A stretch of 64,000 nt of DNA from Thermoplasmata archaeon (GTDB lineage Archaea; Thermoplasmatota; Thermoplasmata; Lutacidiplasmatales; UBA184): assembly GCA_021844945.1 (NCBI GenBank), contig JAKBSJ010000002.1:294965-358964 (forward strand), in the 5' to 3' direction. Of this stretch, positions 5,601 to 21,848 are shown one piece after another. Numbering within the stretch: the first letter of the stretch is position 1; each line of letters begins with the position of its first letter. The notes beneath the pieces were generated by a model. The model was not told where the DNA came from and made no database searches. It saw nothing but the letters and a program-made list of their open reading frames with translations. The translations under genes and the position numbers were made by a program.

Positions 5601-5974
5601 GTGGCGCGGATCCCCGAGAGCGGCGTACCCAGGACTTCGGTCTGGGTCGCGCGCAGGGCCCCGGAGTCCGAGAGACCGATGCCGCAGTTGAGGGCGGTCT
5701 GGCCCCCGAAGGCGAGCAGGATTCCGTCCGGCCGCTCGGCCTCGAGGATCGGCGCGACGAACTCCGGGATCAGGGGCTGGAAGTACACGCGCCCGTTGCG
5801 CGGCGGATCGGTCTGCAACGTCGCGATGTTCGGGTTGACGACAACGGTGTAGACTCCCTCTTCCTCCAGCGCCTTCAGGCACTGAGAGCCGGAGTAGTCG
5901 AACTCGCCGGCCTCCCCGATCTTCAGGGCCCCCGACCCGAGGAGGACCGCCTTGCGAGGGATCTCGGGCGTCAT
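2633..5974 (-). CDS. carB: carbamoyl-phosphate synthase large subunit
   Basis: MTPEIPRKAVLLGSGALKIGEAGEFDYSGSQ.. with two ATP-grasp halves and an MGS-like C-terminus. The start ATG at 5974 overlaps the carA stop (ATGA). The upstream part of the 1164-aa ORF is a stop-free extension. Confidence 0.95.
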   Translation of the reverse strand: MTPEIPRKAVLLGSGALKIGEAGEFDYSGSQCLKALEEEGVYTVVVNPNIATLQTDPPRNGRVYFQPLIPEFVAPILEAERPDGILLAFGGQTALNCGIGLSDSGALRATQTEVLGTPLSGIRATEDRAKFVRAMERAKVPTLPSRAVYSIEEAHRAASELGYPLMVRVAYTLGGKGGGVARTPDELNEVVGRGLRASPMGQVLLERYVGAFKQLEYEVVRDRLGNALTVCNMENVLSMRVHTGDNIVIAPSQTLDDAEYQMLRQAALRAVETVGVVGECNIQFCLNPDSREYYAIEINARLSRSSALASKATGYPLAYVAAKLALGYTLPELKNRVTGVTSACFEPALDYVVVKHPRWDLDKFSRADRRLGPSMKSVGEVMGVGASFPEALSKAVRMCDPRSDLLPPATVRPKEEILADLSAPTPDILYKVLEALRAGIDVAAIQRTSYIDAWFLERLAEIEECQRELIASASAPPEPGMLRRAKELGLSDRAIARARGRDEEEVRTQRIRAGIRPRVRMIDTLAGEWPSRTNYLYLTYRGDADDVAPAPPGSILVLGAGPYRIGSSVEFDWSTMNLADGLKAEGVPTVAVLNSNPETVSTDYDRSDRLYFEEITLERVRDIQEFDRYQGIVTCVGSQLAQNLTPLLHACGIPILGTSSESIDTAEDRARFAQLLQRREIPQPAWKAFTTVAEAEAFADEVGYPVLVRPSYVLSGQAMRVIPGRADLADFLHQAARVSPEHPVVITKFVEGADEVELDAVSDGERLLVGGILEHVERAGVHSGDAIFCLPPRHTSLEVQRDLVAAARTLARELSIRGPFNIQFLVKDGGYQIIELNLRASRSLPFLTKATGVPLLREAARAMLGRPISRDGIAPLPPGRWGVKVPQFSFVQLSGSDPVLGVEMQSTGEVACFGPTFSDALVKALLATGVRLVPRTGTAFVSVGGPELKERLLPIARRLAEIGMRVAATEDTAIYLTDRGIRNVRVLYKVSERERHPNVLDALDGGEVDLLLNVPSSLTQDKLERMLEDDYVLRRRAVELAIPLFTSLETFGAYAEGIAWLSEHALTVEALYGTPEPAAARVARIPRAVQPHRARRRGRRRAPKTRGASRARR

Positions 5975-7119
5975 GAGCGTCGCCGCACCTTCGCCGCAAA
6001 GATGTCGAAGACGAACCCCGCCTCCTGCGGACCGGGGTGGCCCTCGGGATGGCCCTGGAGCGCGATCAGGCGGCCCGTCGCGTCCCGCACCCCCTCGAGC
6101 GTCCCATCGTCCGGGTTGAACGCCCACGGCTCGAGCCCCGTGCCGACGAGCGTCTTCGGGTCGACCGCGTAACCGTGGTTCTCGCTGACGATGAGTGCCC
6201 GGCCGTCCGGGAAGGTAACGGTCTTGTTCTGTCCTCGATGCCCGAACTTGAGCTTGAACGTCGACGCGCCCCGGCTCATCGCGAGAAGCTGCACGCCGAG
6301 GCAGATCCCGAGCGTAGGGAGGGCGCGCACCGATGGACGCGCGAGCTCGGCCACCGAGGTCTCGAGCTGCGCCGGGTCGCCGGGCCCGTTGCTGACGAGG
6401 AGCCCGGCGACGTGCCGTCCCTCGAATTTCTCGGGGATAGGGGCGTTGTAGGGGAGCCGGAGCACCGCGAGGCGACGGTCGAGGAGCGCGCGCAAAATGC
6501 TCGCCTTGACGCCGCAGTCGAGAACGGCTACCACCGGCGCGTTCCGGGGACCGAGGAGGCTCGCTTCTTTTGCGGTGACGTCGGCCATGTAGTTCTCGTC
6601 GGCGTAAGCGGGCGCGTCGCGGATCGTGCGCGCAAGCTCGTCATCGCTCGGACGACGGTCGACCGATCCTACGTCGATGACCCCCCGGACGACTCCCCGC
6701 TCGCGCAGGTGTTCAGTGAGCTGGCGGGTATCGATTCCGAGGACCCCGGGAACTCCTTCGGCATCCAGCCACTGGTCCAGGGGTTCCTCGCTGTTCCAAT
6801 GGTGCGGGGTCGTCGCTCCGCGGGCGATCATCCCCCGGACCTGGATCTCGCCGGATTCCACGCCGAGGGGGAGACCCAGTGGATCCCGTGCTTTCGGGTC
6901 CGGGACGCCGTAGTTCCCCAGCAGAGGGTACGTGAACGTGAGGATCTGTCCCCGGAACGATGGATCGGTCAGCGATTCGGGATAGCCAACCATCCCGGTG
7001 GTGAAGACGACCTCGCCGACCCGGCGGGTCGCGCGGCCGAGGCCGACCCCATCGAATCGACTTCCGTCCTCGAGAAATAGAGTCCCCCTCAGAGCGTCGT
7101 TCCCCGGCGTTCGGGACAC
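5971..7119 (-). CDS. carA: carbamoyl-phosphate synthase small (glutaminase) subunit
   Basis: ..LRGTLFLEDGSRFDGVGLG.., GATase triad region LGICLGVQLL .. ENHGYAV. Start chosen at in-frame GTG 7119 (VSRTPGNDALRGTLFLEDG); the exact start is uncertain. Confidence 0.9.
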   Translation of the reverse strand: MSRTPGNDALRGTLFLEDGSRFDGVGLGRATRRVGEVVFTTGMVGYPESLTDPSFRGQILTFTYPLLGNYGVPDPKARDPLGLPLGVESGEIQVRGMIARGATTPHHWNSEEPLDQWLDAEGVPGVLGIDTRQLTEHLRERGVVRGVIDVGSVDRRPSDDELARTIRDAPAYADENYMADVTAKEASLLGPRNAPVVAVLDCGVKASILRALLDRRLAVLRLPYNAPIPEKFEGRHVAGLLVSNGPGDPAQLETSVAELARPSVRALPTLGICLGVQLLAMSRGASTFKLKFGHRGQNKTVTFPDGRALIVSENHGYAVDPKTLVGTGLEPWAFNPDDGTLEGVRDATGRLIALQGHPEGHPGPQEAGFVFDIFAAKVRRRS

Positions 7120-7247
7120 GGCTGGTGGAACCCGATAGTCCCGAGGAATGGTGTTTTGGATAAGCGTTGCGCCACGAGATCCGTTGCTCCTCACCCGAGG
7201 AGCGCGCGACGCGAGGGGCGAAATACGTGGGTATCCCTGCGCTCGCG

Positions 7248-8246
7248 ATGCCCGGGTTCCCCCGTCTGCGCGACGCATACGACGTCGTCATCCTCGGCGG
7301 GGGTCACGCCGGCTTGGCCGCCGCGCTCAAAACGGGGTTGTTGGGCTACACCGCGCTCCTGATCGATCGCGGGCCGAAGTACAGCCGCTCGTACTACGCG
7401 CCGAAGATGGACAACATCCCCGGCTTCCCTGGAGGGATATCGGGCCACAAGCTCCTCGACCTCCAGATCGCCGCTCTCCGAGAGGTCGAGTCGTCCGTGA
7501 CGTACGTTACCCCGGCGACCGCGACCGGCCTCACCCGCCTCTCCAGCGGAGAGTACGAGGCCGCGTTCGGGTGGCTCAAGCGCAGCCACACGGCGCGCGG
7601 GCGCGCGGCCGTCCTAGCGCTCGGCGTCGTGGACCGGATGCCCGTGATCGGGGGAAAGATCGACCCCATCTTCCCATGGGCGAACTTCGGCATCGTAGAT
7701 TTCTGCGTTCTGTGCGACGGCCACACGCTGCCGGACCGGTCGGTCGGAGTTCTGGGGAACGACGCCTACGCCGTGCGGACGGCGATCGACCTCCTGCACT
7801 TCCGCCCGAAATCCGTGGAGATCCTCACGCTCGGACGACCCTTGCTCGAGGGCAGCCCCGACGACGAGCGGAGCGAGCTCCTGCGCCAATTGGCCGAGCG
7901 CGGCGTCACGCATGTGGATGCCGAGGTCGCGGGGTTCGACGAGATCCGCGAGCGGCGCTTCGGCGTGAAGTTCGCGGACGGCTCGCGTCGGGTCTACGAC
8001 AAGGGATTCAGCGCCCTGGGGTGGTACGATCAGCACCGCGACTTGCCCCGATCTCTCGGCTGTCGCATCGACAGCGAAGGATACGTGGTCACCGACGAGG
8101 ACTGCCGCGCGATCGCGGATCCGGACGGGGGCCCGATTCCGGGCCTGTACTGCATCGGGGACCTGCGGAACGGCTGGAACCAGATCCCCGAAGCGTGGGC
8201 AACTGCCGAGCGGGCGATCATCCACGCCTACGGCTACTACCTGTAG
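7248..8246 (+). CDS. FAD-dependent pyridine nucleotide-disulfide oxidoreductase, thioredoxin-reductase-like
   Basis: YDVVILGGGHAGLAAA (FAD GxGxxG), redox CxxC in FCVLCDGH (compare CAxCDG of TrxB), C-terminal GLYCIGD. Start taken at ATG 7248 (MPGFPRLRDAYDVVILGGG). Confidence 0.8.
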   Translation: MPGFPRLRDAYDVVILGGGHAGLAAALKTGLLGYTALLIDRGPKYSRSYYAPKMDNIPGFPGGISGHKLLDLQIAALREVESSVTYVTPATATGLTRLSSGEYEAAFGWLKRSHTARGRAAVLALGVVDRMPVIGGKIDPIFPWANFGIVDFCVLCDGHTLPDRSVGVLGNDAYAVRTAIDLLHFRPKSVEILTLGRPLLEGSPDDERSELLRQLAERGVTHVDAEVAGFDEIRERRFGVKFADGSRRVYDKGFSALGWYDQHRDLPRSLGCRIDSEGYVVTDEDCRAIADPDGGPIPGLYCIGDLRNGWNQIPEAWATAERAIIHAYGYYL

Positions 8247-8247
8247 C

Positions 8248-9015
8248 TCAGTTCGCGGGAGCGATACGCGGAGGACCGTCCTTCGGGGACGCGGCCACGT
8301 TGAGCTGGCGCGCCAGCTCGAAGAGATCGGTGGCGACCGCCTCCGCCCCGGCAGCGAGGAAACGATCGACCGTCATCGGCGACATCGAGGTCTCCCGGGG
8401 GTCGGGCAGGACGGCGTAGAAGTGGACCTGGGCGCGGGTCGCACACTCGGCATCGATCAAGTGATCGCCGACGTACAGGGCCCGTCCGATCGGGACCTCC
8501 ATTTCCTTCAGCAGGTACCACAACGCTTCGGGGGACGGCTTCGCCGGCCCCGCGGAGCTACGCGAGCGCAAGTAGGGGAAGTACTCGGCAAGGCCCGTTC
8601 GCACGAGGGCGGCGCGGGCAAACGCTTCGGAGCTCCGCGTCAGGATCCCGATGCGAAACCCTCGCCCCACGAGACCCTGTACTAGGTCCATCGCGCCTCC
8701 ACGGACCGTGGTCCGTTCGAGCGCCTGCATCTCGATCCCGTCTATGAGGCGGTGGAACTCGGCCTCGAAGCGCATGACCACCGTCTCGGGCGCCCCACCG
8801 GCAAGGATCCTATCTCGCGCGACCTCCAGGATCCGATGCATCGGCATCTCGACCGACAGGGCTCCGGGCCCGACTCCGTAGCGCTCGGCAAGCCGGATCA
8901 CCTCCCGCCGCATTCGGTAAAAGTCGTGCTGAGAGACGATCAGGGTGCCGTCCAAGTCGAAGACGATCCCGAGCATGGGATCCAGAAACCGCGGTTCCGC
9001 TTGGCGCACGGGCAT
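8248..9015 (-). CDS. HAD-superfamily phosphatase (subfamily IA-like)
   Basis: Motif I IVFDLDGTL, motif II ILTRS, motif IV YVGDHLIDAE. An alternative start at ATG 8976 (MLGIVFDLDGTL) is equally plausible. Confidence 0.8.
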   Translation of the reverse strand: MPVRQAEPRFLDPMLGIVFDLDGTLIVSQHDFYRMRREVIRLAERYGVGPGALSVEMPMHRILEVARDRILAGGAPETVVMRFEAEFHRLIDGIEMQALERTTVRGGAMDLVQGLVGRGFRIGILTRSSEAFARAALVRTGLAEYFPYLRSRSSAGPAKPSPEALWYLLKEMEVPIGRALYVGDHLIDAECATRAQVHFYAVLPDPRETSMSPMTVDRFLAAGAEAVATDLFELARQLNVAASPKDGPPRIAPAN

Positions 9016-9055
9016 CCCTCGTTCCCCCCGTCCGCCCCATTTCAGCGGGGCCGCC

Positions 9056-10588
9056 CTACCTAAGGGTTTCCTTCCAGCGGCGCTTTCCCTGCGGGTCCCG
9101 GCCTTTGGGTCGCGTCAGCGTGACGATCGACTCGCGCAGAAGGAACTGCCGACGTTGGCCGGAACGGCGGGTACGGGCGACATCCACGCTCTCGATCCGG
9201 TACCCGAGGCTTCGTCCGATGCGAGCGGTCAGCAGGTCGCCCGGGACGTAGGTACCGGCCAGTAACGAATCGCCGACCACGAGCACGAACCGACCTCCCG
9301 GGCGCAGCGCTCGGTATACGCTCCGTAGTACATCGGCCAGATCGCGGAAGTACCGGTGGACCACCCCGTGCATGTCGTTGCGACGGTAGGTGCCCTTGCG
9401 CGCGACGTTCTCACGGATCCGGGGAAGGATCTCCTCCAACCAGGGATCCGGGGTCCGGTCCGTGCCCAGGTAATCGCGCGTCGCTGTGCGCGGGAGGTTG
9501 TCGCAGGCGAGCTCCGCGATCCTCAGGGCCGATAGTTCCGGGTAGGAATTCACGTAGCCAAGCCAGGCAAGATCGAGCTTGTAGTTCATCACATAGTCGA
9601 GACCGTTGACGTACGGTGGACTGGTGATCGCGAGGTCCACGCTCTGGGCGGGAAGGTCGATCGTCCGGGAATCGCCCGAGCGGACTTCCGCTGGCGGACC
9701 CCACGGCTCGGAGGACCGCGCCCGTGCGCGCAGGTCCTCGACCATGGTCCGGATCACGTTCTCGTACTGGACGAACGGGAGCGGGCGCTCTCGATCGACG
9801 GGGTCGTAGCCAAGGCAGGGACTCCGTCGTAGGCGGCTTACCGGAACGAGGGTCGCGGCGAAGGCGAGACGAAGGGCGTCGGTGACGCCTCGGGCGTCCG
9901 CGGCCGGAAGGACGGAGCGGATCCGACGAAGTTGGGCCAGCGCCTCGGGCGAGAACTGGCGCCGCGTCTCCCGAAGGAACGGCAGCGCGGCCATCGGCGC
10001 GGGTCGCGCCGTGCGAAGGAGCACCGTCGCGGCGCGTTCCAGATCCCCCGGTGCGAGGTCGATGTCCGTCTTGACCCGCGCCGCGAGAGCCGCCGGGGCC
10101 ATCAGCTCGTAGCCGATCGCGCGTGCGCCGATCCGCTGGGCTTCGATCAGGCTCGTCCCGCTTCCGGCGAAGGGATCGAGGACCGTCGAACCGCGACGCA
10201 TGCCCTCGGAATGGAGCAGGTTCGAAACAAACTCCGCGGAGTACCCCTGGACGTAGGGCCACCAACGATGGAAGGGCAGCCCTTCGTTCGAGCGGAAAGT
10301 GATTGGGCCGCGGTACGATCCCAACGGAACCCCTTCCTCGAGGGCGAAGCGCTCGGCGTAGACTGCCGGTTCGGTGAAGTCCTCCCGCAGCTCGAGCCGA
10401 TCGAAGTCCAGGAGGACCCAGAGCCCCCGACCCATGCGGACGACCTCGCCGCTGCTCGCGAGGCCGCGCAGATCGGAATCTACGCTCGCGACGCCGACGC
10501 CCAGACGACGAGCGATCTGCCGCACGGTCGCTCCGAGCGCCCCGGACTCCGCCAATGCCGTGCGCACGTCGGCGCTCGCTACCGCCAC
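9056..10588 (-). CDS. orphan amino-methyltransferase (N6-A/N4-C DNA MTase-like) with N-terminal winged-helix domain
   Basis: GTG start. wHTH-like TVRQIARRLGVGVASVDSDLRGLASSGEVVRMGRGLWVL. AdoMet motif VLDPFAGSGTSLIEAQRIG. Catalytic DLAITSPPYVNGLDY. LRPGGRFVLVVGDS. No nuclease or specificity gene is adjacent. Confidence 0.8.
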   Translation of the reverse strand: MAVASADVRTALAESGALGATVRQIARRLGVGVASVDSDLRGLASSGEVVRMGRGLWVLLDFDRLELREDFTEPAVYAERFALEEGVPLGSYRGPITFRSNEGLPFHRWWPYVQGYSAEFVSNLLHSEGMRRGSTVLDPFAGSGTSLIEAQRIGARAIGYELMAPAALAARVKTDIDLAPGDLERAATVLLRTARPAPMAALPFLRETRRQFSPEALAQLRRIRSVLPAADARGVTDALRLAFAATLVPVSRLRRSPCLGYDPVDRERPLPFVQYENVIRTMVEDLRARARSSEPWGPPAEVRSGDSRTIDLPAQSVDLAITSPPYVNGLDYVMNYKLDLAWLGYVNSYPELSALRIAELACDNLPRTATRDYLGTDRTPDPWLEEILPRIRENVARKGTYRRNDMHGVVHRYFRDLADVLRSVYRALRPGGRFVLVVGDSLLAGTYVPGDLLTARIGRSLGYRIESVDVARTRRSGQRRQFLLRESIVTLTRPKGRDPQGKRRWKETLR

Positions 10589-10612: not shown

Positions 10613-11572
10613 CTATGGGGATATCGCCGAACGCCCTGAGGTCCGTCGGACCGGACGGGGGACTACGATTTCGGGCCCGCGGCGCCGCGTCAGGTTCCGC
10701 CGGGGCCGCAGCTCGCGGATCTCCGAGACCAGTTCCTGCCGTAACGTCTCCCGCTCCCGGTCGAATCGGGTCCGCCAAGCCGGCACCGCCCGCTCCGGGT
10801 CGAGGCGCGCGAGCTGTTCTGCGAGCACGTCCCGGTCGTGGAGCTCACCCAACCGTCGCTGGAGCCTCGCGTACCGAGGCGGGAACGTTGAGGCCCGCGC
10901 CCCCGAAAGAGCGTCTTCTAGGTCCGTAAGATAACGGAGCTGACGCACCCGGATCCTTAGCGCGTGCATCCGCTCCGGCAGCGGCGACTTCAACGCTCGA
11001 CGCCGAGCCTTGCTTGCGGCGATGGCCAACCTTCGCCGTTCTCGTTTCAGCTCCTGGGTCAGCGCGACGAGCCGCGCGACCGACCCAATCCCTCGCAACG
11101 ACGCCTCGAGCTCCTCGAAGATCCCGGCCGCCTCTTCGGCGCGTAACGCCGCCCGTAGCAGCTCCCGGCCCGTGCGAGCGCTGTCACGCAGGTGACGCCC
11201 GAATGTCGCCCACGGATCGGTCGCCTTGGCGCGGTCCGGGCCGACGAGCCCCTCCCACAGATCGAGCTCCACATCTAGGTCCCGGACCGATCCCGCGAGC
11301 CGGGTCAGATGGCGCACTCGGCCGGCGAGGATTCGAAGCTCTTCCCGCCGGGGCCGGGGGCCAGTTCTTGACCACCATCGTACGAGGATCCGAAGGCGTC
11401 GGAGGTGCCTATGCAAGTCGTGCAGGTCTTCGGTCGAGGGCTCGGGACGTCCGATCACGGTATCGGTGCGGGATCGGGTGCGTGCGATCTCCTCCCGAGC
11501 ATATCGGCCGAGGGGGGACGGGCTGTTCCGGTGGTTGCCCGGCGATTTGGAGGTCGGCTTCCGAGCGAGCAC
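10613..11572 (-). CDS. CHAD domain-containing protein (polyphosphate-associated)
   Basis: Repeated conserved-His helices: EDLHDLHRHLRRLRILVRWW, VRDLDVELDLW, RMHALRIRVRQLRYLTDL, LGELHDRDVL. Start set at in-frame GTG 11572 so that it does not overlap the divergent ppx. The ORF is open to 11710, so the start is uncertain. Confidence 0.75.
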   Translation of the reverse strand: MLARKPTSKSPGNHRNSPSPLGRYAREEIARTRSRTDTVIGRPEPSTEDLHDLHRHLRRLRILVRWWSRTGPRPRREELRILAGRVRHLTRLAGSVRDLDVELDLWEGLVGPDRAKATDPWATFGRHLRDSARTGRELLRAALRAEEAAGIFEELEASLRGIGSVARLVALTQELKRERRRLAIAASKARRRALKSPLPERMHALRIRVRQLRYLTDLEDALSGARASTFPPRYARLQRRLGELHDRDVLAEQLARLDPERAVPAWRTRFDRERETLRQELVSEIRELRPRRNLTRRRGPEIVVPRPVRRTSGRSAISP

Positions 11573-11685
11573 GGTCGTCTCCCCACGGCGTTCGTCCCCA
11601 AAGCTCCGCGGGGTTCCCGCGGTCGGAGCCGATGGTTCAAAGCCCCGGAGGAGTTGGGGGACTCGTGGCCCGATCGAGGCTCGAA

Positions 11686-13227
11686 ATGTCCGAGCGTGCA
11701 ACGGCCGCACCGCCGATACGCGAGCCGAACGCGATCGGCGTCGTCGACGTCGGATCCAACACGGCCCGTCTCGTCGTGTTCGATACGAACCCGGTCGGCG
11801 TCGTGCGCCCGGTCTTCGAGGTCAAGGAGATCCCGCGTCTCGGAGCCGGGACCGGGTCGGACGGTTCCCTCTCTCCCGAGGCGTTCGCGCGCGGGATCGA
11901 ATCCCTGGGTCGTTTCGCGCGCGCGCTGAAGGCCCTCGGGGTCCCGCGCACGCTCACCGTCACGACGAGCGCCGTCCGGGACGCCCCGAACGGCGCGGAA
12001 TTCGTTCGCACCATCGCTCGCGAGACCGGGATTCTCTTGCGCGTGCTGACCGGGGCCGAGGAAGCGCGCTACGGCTACCTCGGCGTGGCGAGCGCATGGG
12101 CACTGGGGAACGACCTGGTCATCGACTTGGGCGGAGGGTCGCTCCAGGTCGTGGAGACCCGGCTCGGCGCCCTGGCGAACTCGGTGAGCCTTCCGTTGGG
12201 TGGGCTCCGCCTGACCCAGCGCTTCGTCCGCCACGATCCGCCGAAGGAACGCGAGATTGACGACCTGCGCGAGTACGTGCGGGACGCGGTCCGCTCGGCC
12301 ATCGCAGCCTTTGGCGGGTCGAACTATCGCGTCTTCGGGATCGGGGGAACGGTGCGGGCGGTCGCGCGCGCCGCGATCGAACTACGAGAGTACCCGATTC
12401 CGCGGGTCCACGGCTACCCGATCCGAGACCACGACCTCGAAGCGCTGACCGAATTGATCTCCGAGATGCCCACGGCAAAGCGGCGCGCGATCCCGGGCAT
12501 CGGGGTGGAGCGAGCGGACGTCATGGACGCCGGCCTCATCGTCCTCTCGGAGATCCTACGCTCGTCCAAGGCCGACGAGATCGCCGTAAGCGGCACCGGG
12601 ATCCGCGAGGGCCTCGCGCTCGAGGCGATCCGGGCGGAGCTACCGGTCCCCAACGAGGTCCTCGCGATCCGCTCGACGACCGCGGCCGCCGAGCGTTTCA
12701 GTTTTTCCCGCGAGCGGGGTCGGGAGGTCGCCGAGCTCTCCGTGGGGCTATTCGACCTCTTCGCCGACGCTCACCATTGGGGCCCGAGCGAACGGCTCTC
12801 CCTGCGGGTTGCGGCGGAGATGCACGACGCCGGGGTCTCGATCGACCTGTGGCGCCACGCGCACCACTCTGCCTACCTGATCCGCAACTACCCGATCTGG
12901 GGACTCACGCACCGCGAGACCCTCCTCGCCGCCTCGATCGTCGCGCTCCACGCTGGGGACGATCTCCCGTCCGGGATGCGCAAGGGGTTCGCCCCGATCC
13001 TTCGGCCGAGCGACGGAACGACCGCACGCCAGTTGGGCACGATCCTGCAGCTGGCGGGCCTTCTCGCCCCGGCGGATCCGCGGTTCTCCCTCGCGGCGGG
13101 GGGCAAGGTCCTTGCCGTGAGCTTTTCCCGTCCCGCGGGTACGACCCTCCCTCCCAGGACCATGGAGAAGGCCCGCAAACCCATCGAACGCGAACTCGAC
13201 ATCGAGGTGAGGTTCCGGGATGGCTGA
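11686..13227 (+). CDS. ppx: exopolyphosphatase / guanosine pentaphosphate phosphohydrolase family (Ppx-GppA) with C-terminal HD-like domain
   Basis: MSERATAAPPIREPNAIGVVDVGSNTARLVVFD.. (ASKHA phosphate-1 motif), DLGGGSLQ, GIGGTVRA. The C-terminus has EMHDAGVSIDLWRHAHHSAYLI. ATG 11686 lies in the frame of ORF 11014..13227. Confidence 0.9.
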   Translation: MSERATAAPPIREPNAIGVVDVGSNTARLVVFDTNPVGVVRPVFEVKEIPRLGAGTGSDGSLSPEAFARGIESLGRFARALKALGVPRTLTVTTSAVRDAPNGAEFVRTIARETGILLRVLTGAEEARYGYLGVASAWALGNDLVIDLGGGSLQVVETRLGALANSVSLPLGGLRLTQRFVRHDPPKEREIDDLREYVRDAVRSAIAAFGGSNYRVFGIGGTVRAVARAAIELREYPIPRVHGYPIRDHDLEALTELISEMPTAKRRAIPGIGVERADVMDAGLIVLSEILRSSKADEIAVSGTGIREGLALEAIRAELPVPNEVLAIRSTTAAAERFSFSRERGREVAELSVGLFDLFADAHHWGPSERLSLRVAAEMHDAGVSIDLWRHAHHSAYLIRNYPIWGLTHRETLLAASIVALHAGDDLPSGMRKGFAPILRPSDGTTARQLGTILQLAGLLAPADPRFSLAAGGKVLAVSFSRPAGTTLPPRTMEKARKPIERELDIEVRFRDG

Positions 13228-13918
13228 CCCGGCTGCGCCGCCGCGGGGCTATCCCGGGCGCCTTATCGTCCTCGAGGGTCTGGATGGCAGCGGGAAATCG
13301 ACCCAGGCCCGCCTCCTGGGCAAGTGGCTCGCGGCCCGGGGGTATCGTGTCTTCTTGACCGAGTGGAACTCCTCCGACCTCGTCAGCGACACGATCCGTC
13401 GCGGGAAGAAGCGCGGCCTGCTGACCCCGACCACCTTCAGCCTGCTCCACGCGACCGATTTTGCCGACCGATTCGAGCGCCAGATCCTCCCACCCTTGCG
13501 GGCGGGCTACGTGGTCGTGTGCGATCGCTACTCGTTCACGGCGTTCGCCCGGGACTCGGCGCGGGGGTGCGCGCCGGCCTGGGTGCGCAACATCTACCAG
13601 TTCGCGCCGCGACCGGACCGTACCTACTACTTCCGGGTCCCGGTGGCCGTCACGTTCCGCCGGAAGCAAGCGTCCCGAATGAAGATCTCCTACTACGAGG
13701 CCGGCATGGACTTGGGGCTCGCGGACAACGTCGAGGATAGCTACAAATTGTTCCAGGCCCGGCTGAAGCAGGAGTACGACCGCATGTCCGATACCGACGG
13801 CTTCACCGTGATCGACGCGAAGGGAACGGTGGAGGAAATCCAGCAGCAACTCCGCGAGGACCTTCGGCCCGTCCTCGACGGGTTCCCCACCGGGGAGAGG
13901 CTCCAGCATGAGGGATAG
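13220..13918 (+). CDS. thymidylate-kinase-fold P-loop protein A (ppx-coupled; candidate polyP kinase/phosphotransferase subunit)
   Basis: P-loop LEGLDGSGKSTQ, LLHATDFADRFE, VVCDRYSFTAFARD. The start overlaps the ppx stop by 8 nt. It lacks the TREPGGT-type dTMP loop (has TEWNSSD instead). Confidence 0.85.
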   Translation: MADPAAPPRGYPGRLIVLEGLDGSGKSTQARLLGKWLAARGYRVFLTEWNSSDLVSDTIRRGKKRGLLTPTTFSLLHATDFADRFERQILPPLRAGYVVVCDRYSFTAFARDSARGCAPAWVRNIYQFAPRPDRTYYFRVPVAVTFRRKQASRMKISYYEAGMDLGLADNVEDSYKLFQARLKQEYDRMSDTDGFTVIDAKGTVEEIQQQLREDLRPVLDGFPTGERLQHEG

Positions 13919-14657
13919 GACGTACGGAACGCCGCTGCCCGGGATGCTGGACGAGAATCTGCCGGGGAAGCTGATCGTCATCGAGGGCGCCGACGGATCC
14001 GGACGCACGACCGAGGCCGAGCGTCTGAAAGAAGCGCTCGAGATCGAGGGGCACTCGATCGTCGATACCGGCTTGCGCCGTTCCACTCTGGTCAGCGAGC
14101 GGATCGACCTCGCGAAGCAGGGCCACACGCTCGCGGCCACGACCATGGCCCTCCTCTACGCCACCGACTTCGCCGATCAGCTCGAGAACAAGATCATCCC
14201 GGCGCTCGCGGGCGGGAGCACCGTCCTCGCGGACCGGTACATCTACACTCTGACGGCCCGCGCGGTGGTCCGCGGGGCCTCCCGGCAGTGGGCTCAGCAG
14301 CTCTACGGATTCGCCCTGCGCCCGGACCTCACGATCTTCTTGGACGCGCGTCCGGAGATCCTGATGCACCGCGCGATCTCGAAGTACGGGAGCCTGGATT
14401 ACTGGGAGTCGGGCATGGACCTGTCGATCTCACCGGATCGGTTCGAGAGCTTCCTCGAGTACCAGGCGCGCCTACGGCGCGAATTCGGCTGGATGGTGGA
14501 AGCGTACGGCTTCTCCGTGGTCGATGCGAACCGCCACCCGGATCTGGTGCACGAGGATGTCCTGAAGCGGGTGCTGCCCCTCTATGCGCCGCCGAAGCGG
14601 CGTCGATCCCTCCCTCCGCCTACGTCTCGCGCTGGGCCATCCACTGCTTCCGCGTGA
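13908..14657 (+). CDS. thymidylate-kinase-fold P-loop protein B (paralog of A; Walker-A Lys replaced by Arg)
   Basis: IEGADGSGRTTE (GR instead of GK), LLYATDFADQLE, VLADRYIYTLTARA, DYWESGMDLS. ATG 13908 overlaps the stop of protein A by 11 nt. An alternative ATG lies at 13944. Confidence 0.85.
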   Translation: MRDRTYGTPLPGMLDENLPGKLIVIEGADGSGRTTEAERLKEALEIEGHSIVDTGLRRSTLVSERIDLAKQGHTLAATTMALLYATDFADQLENKIIPALAGGSTVLADRYIYTLTARAVVRGASRQWAQQLYGFALRPDLTIFLDARPEILMHRAISKYGSLDYWESGMDLSISPDRFESFLEYQARLRREFGWMVEAYGFSVVDANRHPDLVHEDVLKRVLPLYAPPKRRRSLPPPTSRAGPSTASA

Positions 14658-15129
14658 GCAGCCACTTCAGGCGAGCCCCTCCCGGCGCGACCTTTTGCGG
14701 GAATTCGAGCGCCGCCGTCCCCGCCCGCGATAGGCGGGCCACCGGCCTCGCTTCCCCGGTCAGCGCGAGACCGAGGATCTCGGCGAGCCCGGGCTCGTGA
14801 CCGACGAGAACCCCGCACGAGGCCCCCCTCCACTCTCGGGCCACCCGGGCCAGAGCCGCCGACGGGTCGCCCTCGAGACGAAGCTCGGGCCACTCGAGAA
14901 CGCGCACCGGCGGATCGAACGCCTCGGCCCATATTTCGGCGGTGCGGGCCGCGCGACGCAACGGGCTGGTCGCGATGCGGTCGATCTCTTCGACCTCCGC
15001 GGCGAACGCTCTTGCGGCCGCCCGCGTTTCACGGACCCCGTCGGCCGACAGGGGTCGCCCGACGTCGTCCGGCCATCGGGCGGGATTGCGTGCAACGGCA
15101 GGGCCATGACGGACGAGGAAGAGCTCCAC
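14620..15129 (-). CDS. SixA-type phosphohistidine phosphatase (histidine phosphatase superfamily)
   Basis: VELFLVRHGPA (RHG motif), SPLRRAARTAE, LVGHEPGL. Start placed at in-frame GTG 15129; the ORF extends to 15249. The 3' end overlaps the convergent Tmk-fold B gene by 38 nt. Confidence 0.75.
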   Translation of the reverse strand: MELFLVRHGPAVARNPARWPDDVGRPLSADGVRETRAAARAFAAEVEEIDRIATSPLRRAARTAEIWAEAFDPPVRVLEWPELRLEGDPSAALARVAREWRGASCGVLVGHEPGLAEILGLALTGEARPVARLSRAGTAALEFPQKVAPGGARLKWLLTRKQWMAQRET

Positions 15130-17305: not shown

Positions 17306-17599
17306 CGATGGGGGTGGCCCCTCCTTAACGTTGTTGGACCGATCGAGCGGCATGAAATCCGCAAGCCCCGAGGTGAAGGGGTACCCCTTCTCCGAAGGTT
17401 GGACCCCCCCGGACATCCTACCGTGTCCATCTCGCGATGGCGGTATCCCATCGCTAATTTCCGTCCGGTTCCGCGACGTCCTGGAGGGGGTGGAGGCACC
17501 GCGCCCATCCCGTACGTACGCGTTCTCGTGTTGATTCGAGGGCGGCTCCCCGGGCGATTGCGAAGCCGGGGGAGCGCCCGTTCCCGGACCGCTCGCCGA

Positions 17600-18226
17600 T
17601 CACCTCGACGGCCGGAGCATCCGCTTTGCCATGCCGGGCCGACCATCCACCTCGCGAAGCCCCTGAGCGGCCCCGCGTCGGTCGGCCGCGCTCCGCTCCT
17701 GATCGAGCTTCCACGCTCCGAGGAGCGTGCGTGGGCGCAGTCGGATCCCGACGATTTGTCGTAGCCGCTGGGCGATGTACTCCTTCGGGGCGTCCCCAAG
17801 CGACCAGGGCCTCGCGCGACCGCTCTCGTGCCGTCGGGTCAGCGTCTCGACCATTTCCCGCACCCCCGACGGAGCGTCGACCAGCTCCGCCGGACCCCGG
17901 GCCTCGACGGAGATGTAGTTCCAGGTCGGGACGGCCCGCCCGGTCTTGTGCTTGGATGGGTACCAGTCGGGAGAGATGTACGCGTCATCGACGAGGAAGG
18001 CGGCGACCACGTCCTCGCCGTTGCCAATCTCGTGCCACTGCGGGTTCGACCGAGCCAGATGTGCGACAAGCTCGGCTCTTTGCCCGCTTCCAACGACCGC
18101 GAACGGGACCTGGGATGTCTGGATGCCCTCCCGGGCGACGCTGATCAGGGTACCGAACGACCGGGCCCGGATCGCGGCGAGGAGCACCTCCCGTCGCCGT
18201 TCCCGATACACTGCGGGGACGTACAT
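17600..18226 (-). CDS. paiB: FMN-binding PaiB-family protein (putative transcriptional regulator)
   Basis: MYVPAVYRE..FGTLIS..QTSQVPF..AHLARSNPQW..AYISPDWYPSK..VPTWNYISVEARG..GAWKLDQ matches the PaiB pattern over its whole length. Confidence 0.8.
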   Translation of the reverse strand: MYVPAVYRERRREVLLAAIRARSFGTLISVAREGIQTSQVPFAVVGSGQRAELVAHLARSNPQWHEIGNGEDVVAAFLVDDAYISPDWYPSKHKTGRAVPTWNYISVEARGPAELVDAPSGVREMVETLTRRHESGRARPWSLGDAPKEYIAQRLRQIVGIRLRPRTLLGAWKLDQERSAADRRGAAQGLREVDGRPGMAKRMLRPSR

Positions 18227-18618
18227 GCCATTCCGTTTCGAGGGTCGCGGTCTATTTCAGCCTGCCCGAGCCGGCACGTCGCTCCCCGGCCGAAGTTGTC
18301 GATGCCCGGGCGATTGCGAGAGAAGGGGAGGACGCGGAGCCCATGCCGGTCCGAGGGTCGTGGCGGGACCGCTGGAATGGTACAGCCGGTCCAAAAAGAA
18401 GACACGCGGTCAGAGCCGGCTCGAAACGGTCTCACCGACGGGTTCGGCCCCCGGCATCTCTCGTTGGGAAAAGCGTTCCCGGTCTGGACGTAGGGCCGTC
18501 CATGGATTGGACTAGGCGGGCTCGGCTCCGAGCCCTGCGCCGCAGGGAGGAGCTCTTCCAGAACTGCTCGCCCGAGGATCCTATACCGTCTCCCGGACGG
18601 GAGCCGCGGGGCCCGCGT

Positions 18619-20751
18619 TCAGCGACGTCTCGCGCGGGGACGAGCGGGGCGAGCCACGACGCGGCCGCCGGGTGCCAGCGGAAGCGTGCGGAGCCGCGTT
18701 CCGGTCGCGTCGAAGATCGCGCCGGCCAGCGCGGGCGCGACGGCAATCATGGGTGTCTCGCCGCCGCCAGCGGGGGGAATCTCCCGCCAGTCCACGAGCT
18801 CGACAACGACCTCAGGGAGGTCCGCGAACCGCGGAACGCGATACTTCGAAAGGCGCGGATTGAGGACCACGCCGTCGCGGAAGTGCACCGCCTCGAATAG
18901 CGCGCCTCCCATCGCCATCACGGCCGCCCCCTCCACTTGGCTTTGGAGGTTGTCCGGATTCACGACCGCGCCGGCATCGAAGACCGAAACGAGCCGATCG
19001 ACCCGGAGTCGGCGGGACGGGCCGACGGTCACCTCGGCCACCGTGGCGATCCGGCTCTGCTTTTCGAGACCGGCCGCGATGCCGAATCCGTGCGACCTCT
19101 CGCGGCGGCGCCCCGCCCACCCCGAAAGCTCCGCCGCCCGACCTAACACCGCCCGCAGCCGATCGTCTTCGAGATGGGCGAGACGGAAGTCGAGGGGATC
19201 CTGCTTCGCCGCGTACGCGAGCTCGTCCATGGCCGACTCGCGGGCGAAGTTATTGGTCGTCGCCGCGAGAGCTCGGTACGATCCCTGGGGAAGCGGGGAT
19301 TGGGAAAGGACGTTGTCGACCCTCTGGTTCGGGATCCGGTAGGGGGTCCCGAGGGCCGCGGCGCCGGCGTTGATGTTGTGGAAACTCCACGCCGTGAGGC
19401 GCCCCCGAGCATCCAGCCCGGCGCGGACGTCGATCACCGCGTACGGACGGAAGTAGCCCTCGCGGAACTCCTCCTCCCGCGTGAACCCCAGCCGGACCGG
19501 CTGGCCCGCCGCCCGGGCGAGCCGGGCCGCCGCGGTCGCGACATCGCCTCCGTGCTTCCCTCCGAACCCCGAACCGGTCGGAGGGACGATGATGCGTACC
19601 ATTTCCGGCGGAATTCCCAGGTTCTTCGCGACGGCCTCCCGCGCTCGGAACGGTGTCTGGGTCCCCACCCAGACCGTCACGCGCTCGCCATCCCATTCGG
19701 CGATCGCGCACCGGGTCTCGAGGGGAACGTGAGCGATGTATGCGGCGTGGTAGACGGCCTCGAACCGGAGGGTCGCGCGGCGGAGCGCCGTCTCCACGTC
19801 TCCCTCGGATCGCCCTCGCCGGTCCCAGTCATCCCCGGTCTCGGGATGTTGTCGGAGGTACTCTTCGATCGTTCTCTCGTTCGGTTGCGGTGAGAATCGC
19901 CAGCGCGGACCGAGGGCCTCGAGCGCGGCGCGGGCCGAGCGCGGGTCGGGAGCCACCGCGCCTACGAACTCCCCTTCCCGAACAATACGGGCCCCTCGGT
20001 CCGCGAGGGCGTCCGGATCCGCGAGTCCTTCGAGTCGTGCGCCGTAGCGGGGCCGCTCGAGCACCGCCCCATGCAGCATGCCGTCCCGGCGGAGATCCGA
20101 CGTGTACATCCGTCGTCCGGTGACCACCTCGACCGCGTCGGGGTCCAATGTGGGTCGCCCCGCCCGGATCCATTGCGTGGGGAGTGTCAGCGGAAAGTCG
20201 GCTGGGACCTCGACGAGCTTACGCAGACCCCGGACCAGGGTCCCGTAGCTCCAGGACCGGCCCGGGCCCCGAACCTCACCCTCTTTGGCCACGAGCGAGT
20301 TTCGCGCGTTCGAGAGACCCGGCTGCTCTGCGGCGAGAGCCACGAGTTGCTCGCGGGCCGCGGCCGCCGCGCGTCCGAGGGCGGGCGCTGCGTCCGGCAT
20401 CGATCGGCTTCCGAACGTCCCAATGTCCCAGGGACAGAGGTCCGTGTCCGCCATCACGAGGCGGACCCGCGGTAGGGGCACCCGCAACTCTTCGGCGACC
20501 ACGAGCGAGAGTGCCGTACGAGTTCCTTGTCCCACCTCGGCTTTCCCTGTGAACGCCACCACGTCGCCCTCCTCCCCCACATGCAACCAGGCCCCGCCCG
20601 TGGGGGGTTGCCAGTCTCCTTCTCGCCTCTCGGCTACGGGACGACGGGGAGGGACTACGGTGACGAGGCCGGGGCCGAGTAGGTCGAAGTACTCTCGCTC
20701 CGGGACCGGCGTGAGGTCCCAGGGGCGGCGTGGGCGACGGAGTTCGGTCAT
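18619..20751 (-). CDS. molybdopterin-binding subunit of a xanthine dehydrogenase/aldehyde oxidase-family hydroxylase (IorB/CoxL-like)
   Basis: GKAEVGQGTRTAL, GTFGSRS, GSGFGGK, YRALAATTNNFARESAMDE. ATG 20751 overlaps the stop of the upstream 2Fe-2S subunit (ATGA). Confidence 0.85.
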   Translation of the reverse strand: MTELRRPRRPWDLTPVPEREYFDLLGPGLVTVVPPRRPVAERREGDWQPPTGGAWLHVGEEGDVVAFTGKAEVGQGTRTALSLVVAEELRVPLPRVRLVMADTDLCPWDIGTFGSRSMPDAAPALGRAAAAAREQLVALAAEQPGLSNARNSLVAKEGEVRGPGRSWSYGTLVRGLRKLVEVPADFPLTLPTQWIRAGRPTLDPDAVEVVTGRRMYTSDLRRDGMLHGAVLERPRYGARLEGLADPDALADRGARIVREGEFVGAVAPDPRSARAALEALGPRWRFSPQPNERTIEEYLRQHPETGDDWDRRGRSEGDVETALRRATLRFEAVYHAAYIAHVPLETRCAIAEWDGERVTVWVGTQTPFRAREAVAKNLGIPPEMVRIIVPPTGSGFGGKHGGDVATAAARLARAAGQPVRLGFTREEEFREGYFRPYAVIDVRAGLDARGRLTAWSFHNINAGAAALGTPYRIPNQRVDNVLSQSPLPQGSYRALAATTNNFARESAMDELAYAAKQDPLDFRLAHLEDDRLRAVLGRAAELSGWAGRRRERSHGFGIAAGLEKQSRIATVAEVTVGPSRRLRVDRLVSVFDAGAVVNPDNLQSQVEGAAVMAMGGALFEAVHFRDGVVLNPRLSKYRVPRFADLPEVVVELVDWREIPPAGGGETPMIAVAPALAGAIFDATGTRLRTLPLAPGGRVVARPARPRARRR

Positions 20752-21347: not shown

Positions 21348-21821
21348 GCGCGACCTCCTCCTCGCGACCTTAGCAGGGTCCCTCGGCGGGATCGAGACCT
21401 GACCGTCGTCCGGGCGAGCTCGGAACCTGTTAACCCTCAGCTCGGCGGCAGCTCCCCGGCCAGCCTATGGGACTCCGTACACCCGCCATCGACGCGATTT
21501 GAACCGATCCGAAACGGAGATGCCGAAGGGCCAAGGGTTAGGACGTCCCGTGGACGCGCAGCCTACCCTCTTCTCCTCGTCCTGCCGGGACCCCCGGTTC
21601 CCGAGCGCACTCGCGCGGACGTCCTCTCAATGAGGCCGATCCCATGTCCGACAAGTTCCCGGAATTGAGCTTGGGGCTCGCGGTGATCTGCTCGGGAAAG
21701 ACGCCTCCGAGGGGGTTCCTTCGCCGAAGACGGAGGCGTTTCGGAGGGCCGCTTCGGTCTACTCCACGACCTTGGGTGCTCTCGATCCGCTCGGGACGCG
21801 TGAGAGGAGGAAGCGGACAGG

Positions 21822-21833
21822 TTATATATTTAT
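21822..21833 (+). promoter_or_regulatory. strong TATA box (TTATATATTTAT) for the Cys-rich protein/PadR operon
   Basis: The most A/T-rich dodecamer in the window, centred about 23-35 nt upstream of ATG 21849/21861. It is followed by TGATATCA-ctac-TGATAT (21833-21850). Confidence 0.6.
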
Positions 21834-21848
21834 GATATCACTACTGAT

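Follow-up and report, generated by a model that had tools for sequence, protein, structure and literature searches.

The locus at positions 10613–15129 of the window, by which we mean the whole stretch of 64,000 nucleotides that was analysed, was identified from its sequence as a five-gene polyphosphate (polyP) module of a Thermoplasmata archaeon with a two-subunit polyP kinase of the PPK3 type, and is very probably a polyP turnover module built around that enzyme. The observations behind this reading are the genes present, their orthology, the state of their motifs, the fold of A and B and the conservation of the linkage. PPK3 is known from Sulfolobus acidocaldarius (Hofmann et al., JBC 2026, PMC12995831; preprint bioRxiv 2024.08.28.610084), in which SaPPK3, a reversible heteromeric polyP kinase without dTMP kinase activity, consists of Saci_2019 (cPPK3) and Saci_2020 (rPPK3) in an alpha2beta2 form. 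The original prediction held that the two dTMP-kinase-fold proteins beside ppx, here A and B, were unlikely to be housekeeping Tmk and better explained as a polyP kinase or phosphotransferase partner of Ppx, probably heteromeric, which agrees with the characterised SaPPK3. It also pointed to a ppx-adjacent pair of 'thymidylate kinase' genes in Sulfolobus as a proposed new PPK type; this was correct, the pair being Saci_2019 and Saci_2020, of which A and B are orthologues. The features of the locus are as follows.

10613..11572, minus strand: CHAD-domain protein, 319 aa (Pfam PF05235, 1.7e-18), with its start at the GTG at 11572
11573..11685, no strand: CHAD–ppx divergent spacer, 113 bp (sequence reading and gene calls)
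11686..13227, plus strand: PPX, Ppx/GppA family, 513 aa (Ppx-GppA 1e-56; Ppx-GppA_III 1.3e-13)
13220..13918, plus strand: A, predicted cPPK3, 232 aa, dTMP-kinase fold (Thymidylate_kin 8.3e-25; 2plr/5h70 match)
13908..14657, plus strand: B, predicted rPPK3, 249 aa, dTMP-kinase fold (Thymidylate_kin 3.3e-21; 2plr 4.3e-33)
14620..15129, minus strand: SixA-type histidine phosphatase, 169 aa from the GTG at 15129 (His_Phos_1 7.1e-13)

All five open reading frames were found at the coordinates originally predicted, and the predicted layout could be read directly in the sequence: ppx is the first gene of a plus-strand unit ppx-A-B, the CHAD gene is divergent from this unit and the SixA gene converges on it. 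The ppx/A junction, reading ATGGCTGA, is an 8-nt overlap between the ATG of A (13220–13222) and the TGA of ppx (13225–13227), and the A/B junction an 11-nt overlap between the ATG of B (13908–13910) and the TAG of A (13916–13918). Purine-rich, Shine-Dalgarno-like stretches are present 5' of the starts of both A (GAGGTGAGG at 13204–13212) and B (GGGGAGAGG at 13892–13900). The convergent overlap between B (end at 14657) and SixA (3' end at 14620) covers 38 nt. Starting at 11710, the longest CHAD reading frame would run into ppx on the opposite strand. In assemblies with an identical A protein, the public gene calls give a CHAD protein of 319 aa and a SixA protein of 169 aa; the former corresponds to the GTG at 11572 and thus leaves the 113-bp spacer, which presumably holds the putative promoters of the CHAD and ppx units.

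Both A and B matched the Thymidylate_kin profile in the search that had been proposed for them. The best sequence match of A was the S. tokodaii protein STK_15430 (PDB 2plr/5h70; E=1.8e-58, 47% identity), far stronger than its best match to a canonical Tmk (E about 1e-17 to 2e-17). The AF2 model of A (pLDDT 90.2) aligned in Foldseek with 5h70_B at TMt 0.94 and rmsd 1.5, while the E-values of canonical Tmks were weaker by about ten orders of magnitude. For neither A nor B was there a PPK2 among the top 50 Foldseek matches, or a Pfam PPK2 match. With Saci_2019 as the query A scored above B (204 and 128 bits), and A is 45% identical to the Sulfolobus c subunit. The motifs GSGK[ST], DRY and TDFADRFER were each present in 80/80 A orthologues. 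About 15 conserved basic residues in the alignment are present in A and missing from B, the same contrast that was described between c and r subunits (PMC12995831), and several of them, namely the KKK cluster, R84, R87, R94 and R153, are basic also in Saci_2019. A is thus identified as an orthologue of cPPK3, and a predicted catalytic P-loop kinase.

Subunit B had its best sequence and structure match likewise in STK_15430 (Foldseek against 5h70_A, TMt 0.90), and its AF2 model (pLDDT 81.2) is a complete kinase fold. With Saci_2020 as the query the order of scores was B (100 bits) above A (80 bits); the identity of B to the Sulfolobus r subunit is 30%. The Walker-A lysine of B is replaced by arginine (GSGRT), which is invariant in 74/74 orthologues and is found too in every other rPPK3 that was compared, two of them from Sulfolobaceae (S. 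tokodaii and Metallosphaera sedula). Further r-type signatures, GLRRS, Y84 and DQxEN, are common to B and the Sulfolobaceae (S. tokodaii and M. sedula), Nitrososphaera and bacterial r subunits. The derived states that B has in common with all of these are GR[ST], G-L/I-x-x-S, Tyr for His77 and DQxEN. The gene also lies directly after the c gene, as r genes do, and a clade of r subunits with B and Saci_r was recovered in 135/200 neighbour-joining bootstraps (68%), a moderate support for its monophyly. B is accordingly assigned as the orthologue of rPPK3, a putative regulatory, non-canonical subunit. DR[YF] is present in all 74 B orthologues, with the DRY arginine kept. The rPPK3s have been described as lacking the DRX arginine, and this loss was taken as the cause of their inactivity (PMC12995831); B does not have this lesion, a point against the PPK3 reading, and may not be inactive.

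The module is carried by at least 80 species-level genomes. The neighbourhood survey suggested by the original prediction found PPX, A, B and SixA together in 39/39 Thermoplasmata loci with full flanks, and CHAD in 29 of these 39. Among all 80 related loci PPX was 5' of A in 79; SixA was an adjacent convergent gene in 67, and CHAD a divergent neighbour in 52. The linkage persists despite an order and orientation different from the Sulfolobus and Nitrososphaera loci; such an arrangement goes far beyond what chance would give. Within the 64 kb no kinase that could compete with A and B, whether PPK1, PPK2 or a third Tmk-like protein, was found, which also supports the PPK3 reading.

What A and B do, in what ratio they assemble, how B activates A and in which direction the reaction runs in the cell we infer from the Sulfolobus enzyme; the low identity of A and B to its subunits, only 45 and 30%, respectively, is a point against the reading. 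A would move phosphate reversibly at the polyP chain end, polyP(n) + ADP <-> polyP(n-1) + ATP. By analogy with Saci_2020, B, a paralogue of A without the canonical lysine in its Walker-A motif, would form an alpha2beta2 heterotetramer with A and raise its activity roughly ten-fold. The start/stop overlaps of ppx-A-B probably couple translation, which would favour equimolar A and B and their co-production with PPX. As in SaPPK3, the ATP/ADP ratio may set the direction, with polyP synthesis confined to high energy charge and polyP returned to ATP when the charge falls. PPX would degrade polyP to Pi irreversibly; its score against the exopolyphosphatase model TIGR03706 (271 bits) is under the NCBIfam cutoff of 307. 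The SixA protein, with an RHG motif ('LVRHGPA') and a second histidine ('GHEPG'), is also under its NCBIfam cutoff (TIGR00249 sixA, 59.8 bits against 74.5) and is a putative phosphohistidine or small-phosphoester phosphatase. The CHAD protein is presumed to be polyP-granule-associated and would be expected to sit on the granule.

Three other readings were weighed against this one. It is highly improbable that one or both of A and B are ordinary dTMP kinases, whether the housekeeping enzyme or a duplicate, that lie beside ppx by chance. Counting for it and against PPK3, both proteins exceed the NCBIfam dTMP-kinase equivalog cutoff of 83.25 bits (TIGR00041; A 96.1, B 83.3), and public records label both as dTMP kinase. 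Also counting for it, STK_15430 was first deposited as a dTMP kinase, and no third Tmk-like gene was found within the 64-kb window. However, the positions TREPGG, F-S-A-D-R and A-Y-Q of Thermus thermophilus (Tth) Tmk, which we take to be those contacting dTMP in canonical Tmk, are replaced: TREPGG by TEWNSS in A and TGLRRS in B, F-S-A-D-R by H-A-T-D-F and Y-A-T-D-F, respectively, and A-Y-Q is gone in both. A and B also fall in the PPK3 clade, apart from Tth Tmk, in 96/100 bootstraps, the linkage with ppx and SixA is invariant in the 39 loci, and kinases of this type also occur fused to Ppx-GppA domain III/HD or to pyrophosphatase. Finally, dTMP kinase activity is absent from the Sulfolobus orthologues and present in the unlinked Saci_0893 (PMC12995831).

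It is quite unlikely that the module serves polyP use only, for ATP regeneration and Pi release, synthesis being left to a PPK1 or PPK2 whose gene lies in another part of the genome. SaPPK3 favours the direction from polyP to ATP with a 50-fold higher specific activity, and it forms polyP only with an ATP-recycling system (PMC12995831); a few Thermoplasmatales PPK1 homologues have been reported, and the part of the genome inspected was 64 kb. Against this, the window contains neither PPK1 nor PPK2, most PPK3-encoding genomes have neither, and Saci_2019 makes polyP from ATP in vitro (PMC12995831). The original description of the pair as the synthetic partner of Ppx gives only half the story, as the enzyme favours polyP-dependent ATP formation (PMC12995831). 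The remaining reading, an unlikely one, gives B a second functional site instead of the role of an inert scaffold, either as an allosteric sensor that binds nucleotide or polyP, or as a kinase with another acceptor (for example AMP or another NMP); in the latter case the reaction of the pair would run in two steps or be gated by energy charge. Conservation of B is very strong (about 100 columns are invariant in 65 sequences), the kinase fold of its model is complete, DRY (74/74) and the lid arginine R155 are kept, and the Walker position is an invariant arginine and not degenerate. It also has conserved basic residues of its own (R57, R58, K95, R126 and R148) and a conserved N-terminal motif T-Y-G-T-x-L-P-G that is missing in Sulfolobaceae r subunits. 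A Walker-A Lys-to-Arg change, however, usually abolishes phosphotransfer in P-loop NTPases. The same arginine is present in the S. tokodaii and M. sedula r subunits, the basic residues assigned to polyP binding are absent from B, and the only r subunit tested, Saci_2020, is inactive alone (PMC12995831).

The PPK3 reading can be set beside several known systems. Canonical Tmk (T. thermophilus 5x7j, Saci_0893) has the same fold, P-loop, DRY and lid as A and B, but differs in its dTMP-binding positions, and the A and B genes are operon-linked to ppx; Tth Tmk also lacks an insertion of about 17 residues (conserved E-A/S-G-M-D) common to A and B. The two-domain class II PPK2 (P. aeruginosa PA3455) likewise combines an active P-loop kinase module with an inactive paralogous one, needed for oligomerisation and activation, and likewise favours polyP-dependent nucleotide phosphorylation; unlike A/B, it belongs to another P-loop kinase family (PF03976), its modules are fused and its acceptor is AMP. 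The cPPK3 homologue STK_15430 of Sulfurisphaera tokodaii (PDB 2plr, 4nzy, 4rzx, 5h70), deposited as 'dTMP kinase', was crystallised alone as a single subunit, and its structures show neither polyP nor a heteromer. Outside Thermoplasmata, the c subunits nearest to A are those of the Nitrososphaera and bacterial PPK3 loci (55 and 52% identity, respectively), whose r subunits combine GSGR[ST] with DRY as B does. The Nitrososphaera order is sixA-ppx-c-r, unlike that of the Thermoplasmata locus, and a bacterial Acidoferrales MAG (DATFQU010000206.1) has c-r-ppx, CHAD and SixA being absent from the DNA available for that locus.

The characterised counterpart is the S. acidocaldarius operon, sixA-ppx-cPPK3-rPPK3-CHAD (PMC12995831), a layout confirmed directly at that locus. 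CHAD and SixA, which the original prediction regarded as added partners, are thus already present there and are listed with PPX as typical PPK3 neighbours (PMC12995831); the family and its gene partners were known from Sulfolobus, and the interpretation is not new. The two loci share all five gene families and the core ppx -> c -> r with overlapping junctions; A resembles Saci_2019 in its P-loop, DRY and basic residues, B resembles Sulfolobaceae r subunits in its r-type signatures, and both A and B have the dTMP-kinase fold. The predicted extension to a distant high-GC lineage holds, the host being a Thermoplasmata archaeon with 68% GC here and a crenarchaeote there. The PPX protein has 513 aa here, domain III included, and 411 aa in S. 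acidocaldarius, and B has a conserved N-terminal extension compared to Sulfolobaceae r subunits. The modest novelty lies in the Thermoplasmata host, unnamed in the text of PMC12995831, in the rearranged gene order, with CHAD divergent upstream and SixA convergent downstream instead of five co-directional genes, and in a B subunit that keeps the DRX arginine, where Sulfolobaceae r subunits have D-G-Y, and carries the invariant Walker-A Lys-to-Arg replacement instead.

The five-gene polyphosphate (polyP) module at 10613-15129 was borne out by the ORF list together with Pfam and NCBIfam matches, with the coordinates and strands of the original prediction. PPX, SixA-like and CHAD genes all accompany genes A and B in the window (Pfam):

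3' end at 10613, GTG start at 11572, minus strand: CHAD protein of 319 aa (Pfam PF05235, 1.7e-18)
Stop at 13227, plus strand: ppx (Pfam Ppx-GppA, 1e-56; domain III, 1.3e-13)
13220-13918, plus strand: A, candidate catalytic subunit (Pfam Thymidylate_kin, 8.3e-25)
13908-14657, plus strand: B, candidate regulatory subunit (Pfam Thymidylate_kin, 3.3e-21)
3' end at 14620, minus strand: SixA-like phosphatase of 169 aa (Pfam His_Phos_1, 7.1e-13)

The overlaps claimed earlier were also found when the DNA was read directly at the junctions: ppx and A overlap by 8 nt (ATGGCTGA), A and B by 11 nt (ATG at 13908, TAG at 13916-13918), and the converging 3' ends of B and the SixA-like gene by 38 nt. Both internal starts, those of A and B, are preceded by purine-rich Shine-Dalgarno-like stretches. 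The lengths of the CHAD (319 aa) and SixA (169 aa) proteins are those of the gene calls of assemblies with an identical A protein. The 319-aa call places the CHAD start of the window at GTG 11572 and not at 11710, which leaves a 113-bp divergent spacer to ppx and no divergent overlap. The minus-strand phosphatase scored 59.8 bits against the TIGR00249 sixA model (cutoff 74.5), and with both RHG and GHEP motifs readable it is predicted to be SixA-like.

A ppx-adjacent pair of 'thymidylate kinases' in Sulfolobus, named in the original prediction as a proposed new PPK type, is by now in the literature: in S. acidocaldarius the two proteins were described as a heteromeric family-3 polyphosphate kinase (PPK3) by Hofmann et al. 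(bioRxiv 2024.08.28.610084; J Biol Chem 2026, PMC12995831). The catalytic cPPK3 (Saci_2019) and the regulatory rPPK3 (Saci_2020) form an alpha2beta2 complex without dTMP kinase activity, the real Tmk being the unlinked Saci_0893, and the enzyme is reversible but favours ADP + polyP -> ATP by 50-fold in specific activity (PMC12995831). The published model of SaPPK3 has an ipTM of 0.86.

Sequence and fold comparisons placed A with the catalytic subunits. Its residues 13-220 matched the S. tokodaii cPPK3 homologue STK_15430, deposited as dTMP kinase (2plr, 4nzy, 4rzx, 5h70), at E=1.8e-58, compared with E=2e-17 for the best canonical Tmk. In Foldseek, the AF2 monomer model of A (pLDDT 90.2) matched 5h70_B at a TMt of 0.94 (rmsd 1.5 A), and the E-values of canonical Tmks were weaker by approximately ten orders of magnitude. 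The motifs GSGK[ST], DRY and TDFADRFER were each kept in all 80 A orthologues compared, and in the sequence alignment A has the Walker-A lysine, the DRX arginine and the conserved positive residues that characterise cPPK3. Approximately 15 basic residues conserved in A lack such conservation in B, including R14, K35, R43, R60, K64, K/R65 and R84, and further R87, R94, K149, R153, K155, K183 and R212. The KKK cluster, R84, R87, R94 and R153 are basic also in Saci_2019. A contrast of this kind between c and r subunits has been ascribed to the polyP-binding cleft (PMC12995831), and judged from the alignment the pattern of A is that same contrast. Saci_2019 matched A at 204 bits and B at 128 bits, and A is assigned here as the predicted catalytic PPK3 subunit.

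B matched STK_15430 at 4.3e-33 and the best Tmk at 7e-15, and the best Foldseek match of its AF2 monomer model (pLDDT 81.2) was 5h70_A (TMt 0.90). Saci_2020 matched B at 100 bits and A at 80 bits. An r clade including B, Saci_2020 and the bacterial r subunits was recovered in 135 of 200 NJ bootstraps, and in 157 of 200 Saci_2020 and B formed a group without any c type. The tandem order of A and B (c, then r) is the same as that of Saci_2019 and Saci_2020 in their own locus, and B is a predicted r-type subunit. Homologues retrieved with B as query were all from close Thermoplasmata relatives, none being from Sulfolobus; the Sulfolobus loci were reached via a search with the 2plr sequence.

Across NCBI, JGI and UniRef A and B are named dTMP or thymidylate kinases because both exceed the dTMP-kinase equivalog cutoff of TIGR00041 (83.25 bits; A 96.1, B 83.3; NCBIfam), and the profile-HMM check proposed for the two proteins likewise returned Thymidylate_kin (PF02223) in Pfam. 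The equivalog score is in conflict with the residue-level and clade-level tests. In alignment with the Tmk of T. thermophilus, TREPGG is replaced by TEWNSS in A and TGLRRS in B, F-S-A-D-R by H-A-T-D-F and Y-A-T-D-F, respectively, and the A-Y-Q motif is lost in both; these positions we take to be the dTMP-contacting ones in Tmk structures. The c and r types stood jointly apart from the T. thermophilus Tmk in 96 of 100 NJ bootstraps, a tree that with its one canonical outgroup is weaker than the published phylogeny. Since these positions are replaced, and since the dTMP-binding residues of c and r subunits have been reported as not conserved (PMC12995831), the equivalog match looks like a systematic misannotation, and one that appears to concern the whole PPK3 family. 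That A and B would be housekeeping Tmk duplicates was rejected on the residue and clade evidence, which, in line with the original prediction, argues against Tmk function. A PPK2-like identity was rejected as well, with no Pfam match and no PPK2 among the top 50 Foldseek matches of either protein. No Pfam match to PPK1 or PPK2 (PF03976) was found for A, B or the other genes of the window, and neither PPK1/PPK2 nor a third Tmk-like gene was detected in the 64-kb window by Pfam on the approximately 50 called genes and by six-frame tblastn. A genome with PPK3 is expected to hold a separate canonical tmk and usually neither PPK1 nor PPK2.

An ATP-cone ribonucleotide reductase and a dUTPase are located at 28495-30597 and 36456-36917, 14-22 kb from the PPK3 genes. 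Despite their presence, a canonical tmk is still absent from the 64-kb window.

The inactivity of rPPK3 has been explained by the replacement of the DRX arginine (PMC12995831). B reads A-D-R-Y at this position and DR[YF] is present in 74 of 74 Thermoplasmata orthologues, so that the arginine is retained; in the same 74 sequences the Walker-A lysine is changed to an invariant arginine (GxGR[ST]). The r-type signatures derived here are this Walker-A Lys-to-Arg change, G-[LI]-x-x-S in the place of E-W-N-S-S, Tyr in the place of His77, and D-Q-x-E-N. Those of B are common to the r subunits of S. tokodaii, M. sedula, Nitrososphaera and Acidoferrales, and Saci_2020 has every one of them except the Walker arginine. 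The comparison was extended to six loci beyond the Thermoplasmata set.

Walker-A and DRX positions of r subunits at six further loci
S. tokodaii: Walker A GSGRTA; DRX position ADGY
M. sedula: Walker A GSGRTY; DRX position ADGY
S. acidocaldarius: Walker A SSGKTT; DRX position ADGY
Nitrososphaera: Walker A ASGRST; DRX position ADRY
Acidoferrales bacterium: Walker A GSGRST; DRX position ADRY
L088 (ENA ERZ25039590 contig_22674): Walker A GSGRST; DRX position ADRY

Among the r subunits compared, the D-G-Y lesion was present only in the three from Sulfolobaceae, while Nitrososphaera and the bacterial ones keep DRY. In a library of 50%-identity representatives, 154 clusters matched B at E<=1e-30, and the kinase domains were read in the best 150 of them: 62 combine the Walker arginine with an intact DRX arginine, five have a Walker cysteine, and 34 have a Walker lysine, these being c-type or fusion proteins. 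Given the 62 domains with Walker arginine and intact DRX, and the DRY of the r subunits outside Sulfolobaceae, the loss of the DRX arginine appears to be lineage-specific and not defining. From these motifs, the family-wide hallmark of the r subunit is the Walker Lys-to-Arg change, and the DRX-arginine loss looks like a secondary change in Sulfolobaceae. The pattern suggests that the current explanation of rPPK3 inactivity is drawn from an atypical lineage.

An N-terminal motif, T-Y-G-T-x-L-P-G, is conserved in B (window 13908-13945, residues 1-12) and in its orthologues in the related Thermoplasmata loci (L001-L080), with Y6, P11 and G12 invariant or nearly so. Neither A nor the r subunits of Sulfolobaceae have this motif, and the bacterial r subunits have it in a weaker form.

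The B alignment contains approximately 100 invariant columns among 65 sequences, indicating strong constraint, and R57, R58, K95, R126 and R148 are basic residues conserved within the B set itself. Despite the Walker arginine, the site is otherwise intact in sequence, with DRY, the lid arginine, the basic residues of its own and the N-terminal motif. An invariant arginine in an otherwise intact site is more in keeping with a pseudokinase that binds a ligand than with a scaffold in decay. Beyond this, we tentatively raise, as something rather doubtful, that in most lineages, the present one included, the r subunit may, instead of being a dead scaffold, serve as a conserved ligand-binding sensor or second active site. 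Sensing of ATP/ADP or polyP by B would make PPK3 a switch that responds to energy charge through allosteric gating; in that case Thermoplasmata, Nitrososphaera and bacteria would have the typical form, and the Sulfolobus enzyme would be a derived exception.

The search of genome contigs with A identified 202 confirmed relatives in GTDB species-representative genomes. The MAGs with long contigs include those of JAKIWL010000001.1 (504 kb), CAVVLW010000006.1 (659 kb) and JAKASQ010000002.1 (443 kb). The best 80 of the 202 were all from MAGs named Thermoplasmata archaeon, plus one 'Ca. Lutacidiplasmatales', and with the host being an uncultured Thermoplasmata of 68% GC the proposed extension to a distant high-GC lineage held. 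The combination ppx-A-B was present in the 80 loci, surveyed with flanks of up to 10 kb, wherever the contig permits. PPX, A, B and SixA were found in all 39 loci with full flanks and CHAD in 29 of them; SixA was convergent and adjacent in 67 of the 80 loci, and CHAD divergent and adjacent in 52. Alignment gaps pointed to overlapping ppx/A and A/B junctions in approximately two-thirds of the loci. The most distant loci have displaced accessory genes, CHAD being downstream of SixA in two (L061, L063) and SixA upstream and co-directional in three (L076, L079, L080). The expected conservation of the ppx/Tmk-fold linkage in relatives was thus strongly confirmed by the survey of the 80 neighbourhoods. 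Because the linkage survives rearrangement in the distant loci, Sulfolobus, Nitrososphaera and Acidoferrales, it argues for functional coupling and not for inherited gene order.

One MAG, isolate SMAG_U14978, has two contigs (L044, DATJRX010000028.1; L054, DATJRX010000017.1), each with a complete CHAD/ppx/A/B/SixA set, which is either a true duplication or the result of two co-binned strains. In L088 (2.0 Mb), the host of which is apparently a bacterium, a c-r pair is flanked by gidA and a 2-oxoacid dehydrogenase operon without adjacent ppx, CHAD or SixA, and PPK3 is thus not always embedded in a polyP operon. PPK3-like kinase domains were also detected in fusion proteins (P0244, P0262, P0302, P0322, P0331, P0356, P0242, P0343). 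These include two Tmk-fold domains with Ppx-GppA domain III/HD (696 and 680 aa), a family-I-like inorganic pyrophosphatase with a Tmk fold (1610 aa), an MFS transporter with a Tmk fold and DUF2252/APH (approximately 1200 aa), and single-chain c-r fusions (P0242, 460 aa; P0343, 359 aa). The fusions tie the PPK3-type kinase independently to phosphate/polyP chemistry.

The window is approximately 95% identical over 14 kb to two related contigs, L003 (JAKAYT010000008.1) and L083 (DAIFCV010000042.1), and elsewhere it includes the archaeal housekeeping genes of RpoL, Rpo7/E', archaeosine tRNA-guanine transglycosylase, TrmB, Tpt1 and TYW2/Trm5. Compared with L083 and L003, a 4.2-kb segment (17470-21639) with an FMN_bind_2 protein and a molybdopterin (MoCoBD) and [2Fe-2S] oxidoreductase pair is extra or replaced. 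A 2.6-kb segment (23222-25798) holds CBS, a PALP (cysteine-synthase-like) enzyme and a hexapeptide acyltransferase where the two contigs have a methyltransferase, and 321 bp are inserted at 26588-26908. The segments within 17470-26908 form a strain-variable region; GC falls to approximately 0.65 across 22-30 kb. Upstream of CHAD (7167-10588) are a pyridine-nucleotide disulphide oxidoreductase, a HAD hydrolase and a 510-aa N6/N4 DNA-methylase-like protein. This three-gene block is syntenic in 26 of the 39 full-flank Thermoplasmata loci and probably represents lineage synteny, although the HAD phosphatase could be functionally related to the polyP module next to it. The carA region (6175-7080) is on the minus strand according to public gene calls.

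On the observed gene content, orthology, motif status, fold and linkage of the module, its working may be modelled on the Sulfolobus enzyme, from which catalysis, oligomeric state and physiological direction are taken by analogy. A would be a polyP:ADP/ATP phosphotransferase, which B would join, probably as A2B2, and activate, and the ATP/ADP ratio would set the direction of the reaction. Translational coupling of ppx-A-B would set the stoichiometry, the overlapping genes being consistent with 1:1 production of A and B, while PPX would drain polyP to Pi and CHAD would decorate the polyP granule.

How PPK-less archaea make polyP is a testable question that the 2026 paper has largely answered. 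The module is real and its original interpretation correct, and the PPK3 family with its CHAD and SixA partners is already published: sixA, ppx, cPPK3, rPPK3 and CHAD form one operon in S. acidocaldarius, and PPX, SixA, CHAD, PstS/C and Nudix are listed as neighbourhood partners (PMC12995831), so that CHAD and SixA are not newly added here as had been claimed. The main texts of bioRxiv 2024.08.28.610084 and PMC12995831 make no mention of any term beginning with Thermoplasma, and in the literature searched no paper was found combining PPK3 with terms beginning with Thermoplasmat, or Lutacidiplasmatales with polyphosphate. What is new against these main texts is a large Thermoplasmata radiation with the module, its rearranged architecture, and an r-motif pattern unlike the published generalisation. 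PPK3 is not limited to Sulfolobaceae, Nitrososphaeraceae and "a few bacteria" but belongs, as a standard module with conserved synteny, to a large uncultured Thermoplasmata radiation of soils, peat and acidic sites. Naming both subunits "dTMP kinase" leads in such genomes to too few calls for polyP metabolism and to wrong ones for nucleotide metabolism.

These findings refine and do not change the picture set by the 2026 paper (PMC12995831). The layout of the S. acidocaldarius locus was confirmed as sixA 3292-3768, ppx 3769-5004, c 5001-5642, r 5621-6253 and CHAD 6243-6863. In Sulfolobus and Nitrososphaera sixA comes first and is co-directional, whereas in the window the SixA-like gene is downstream and convergent, and the Acidoferrales bacterium has the order c-r-ppx in contrast to the ppx-c-r of the window.
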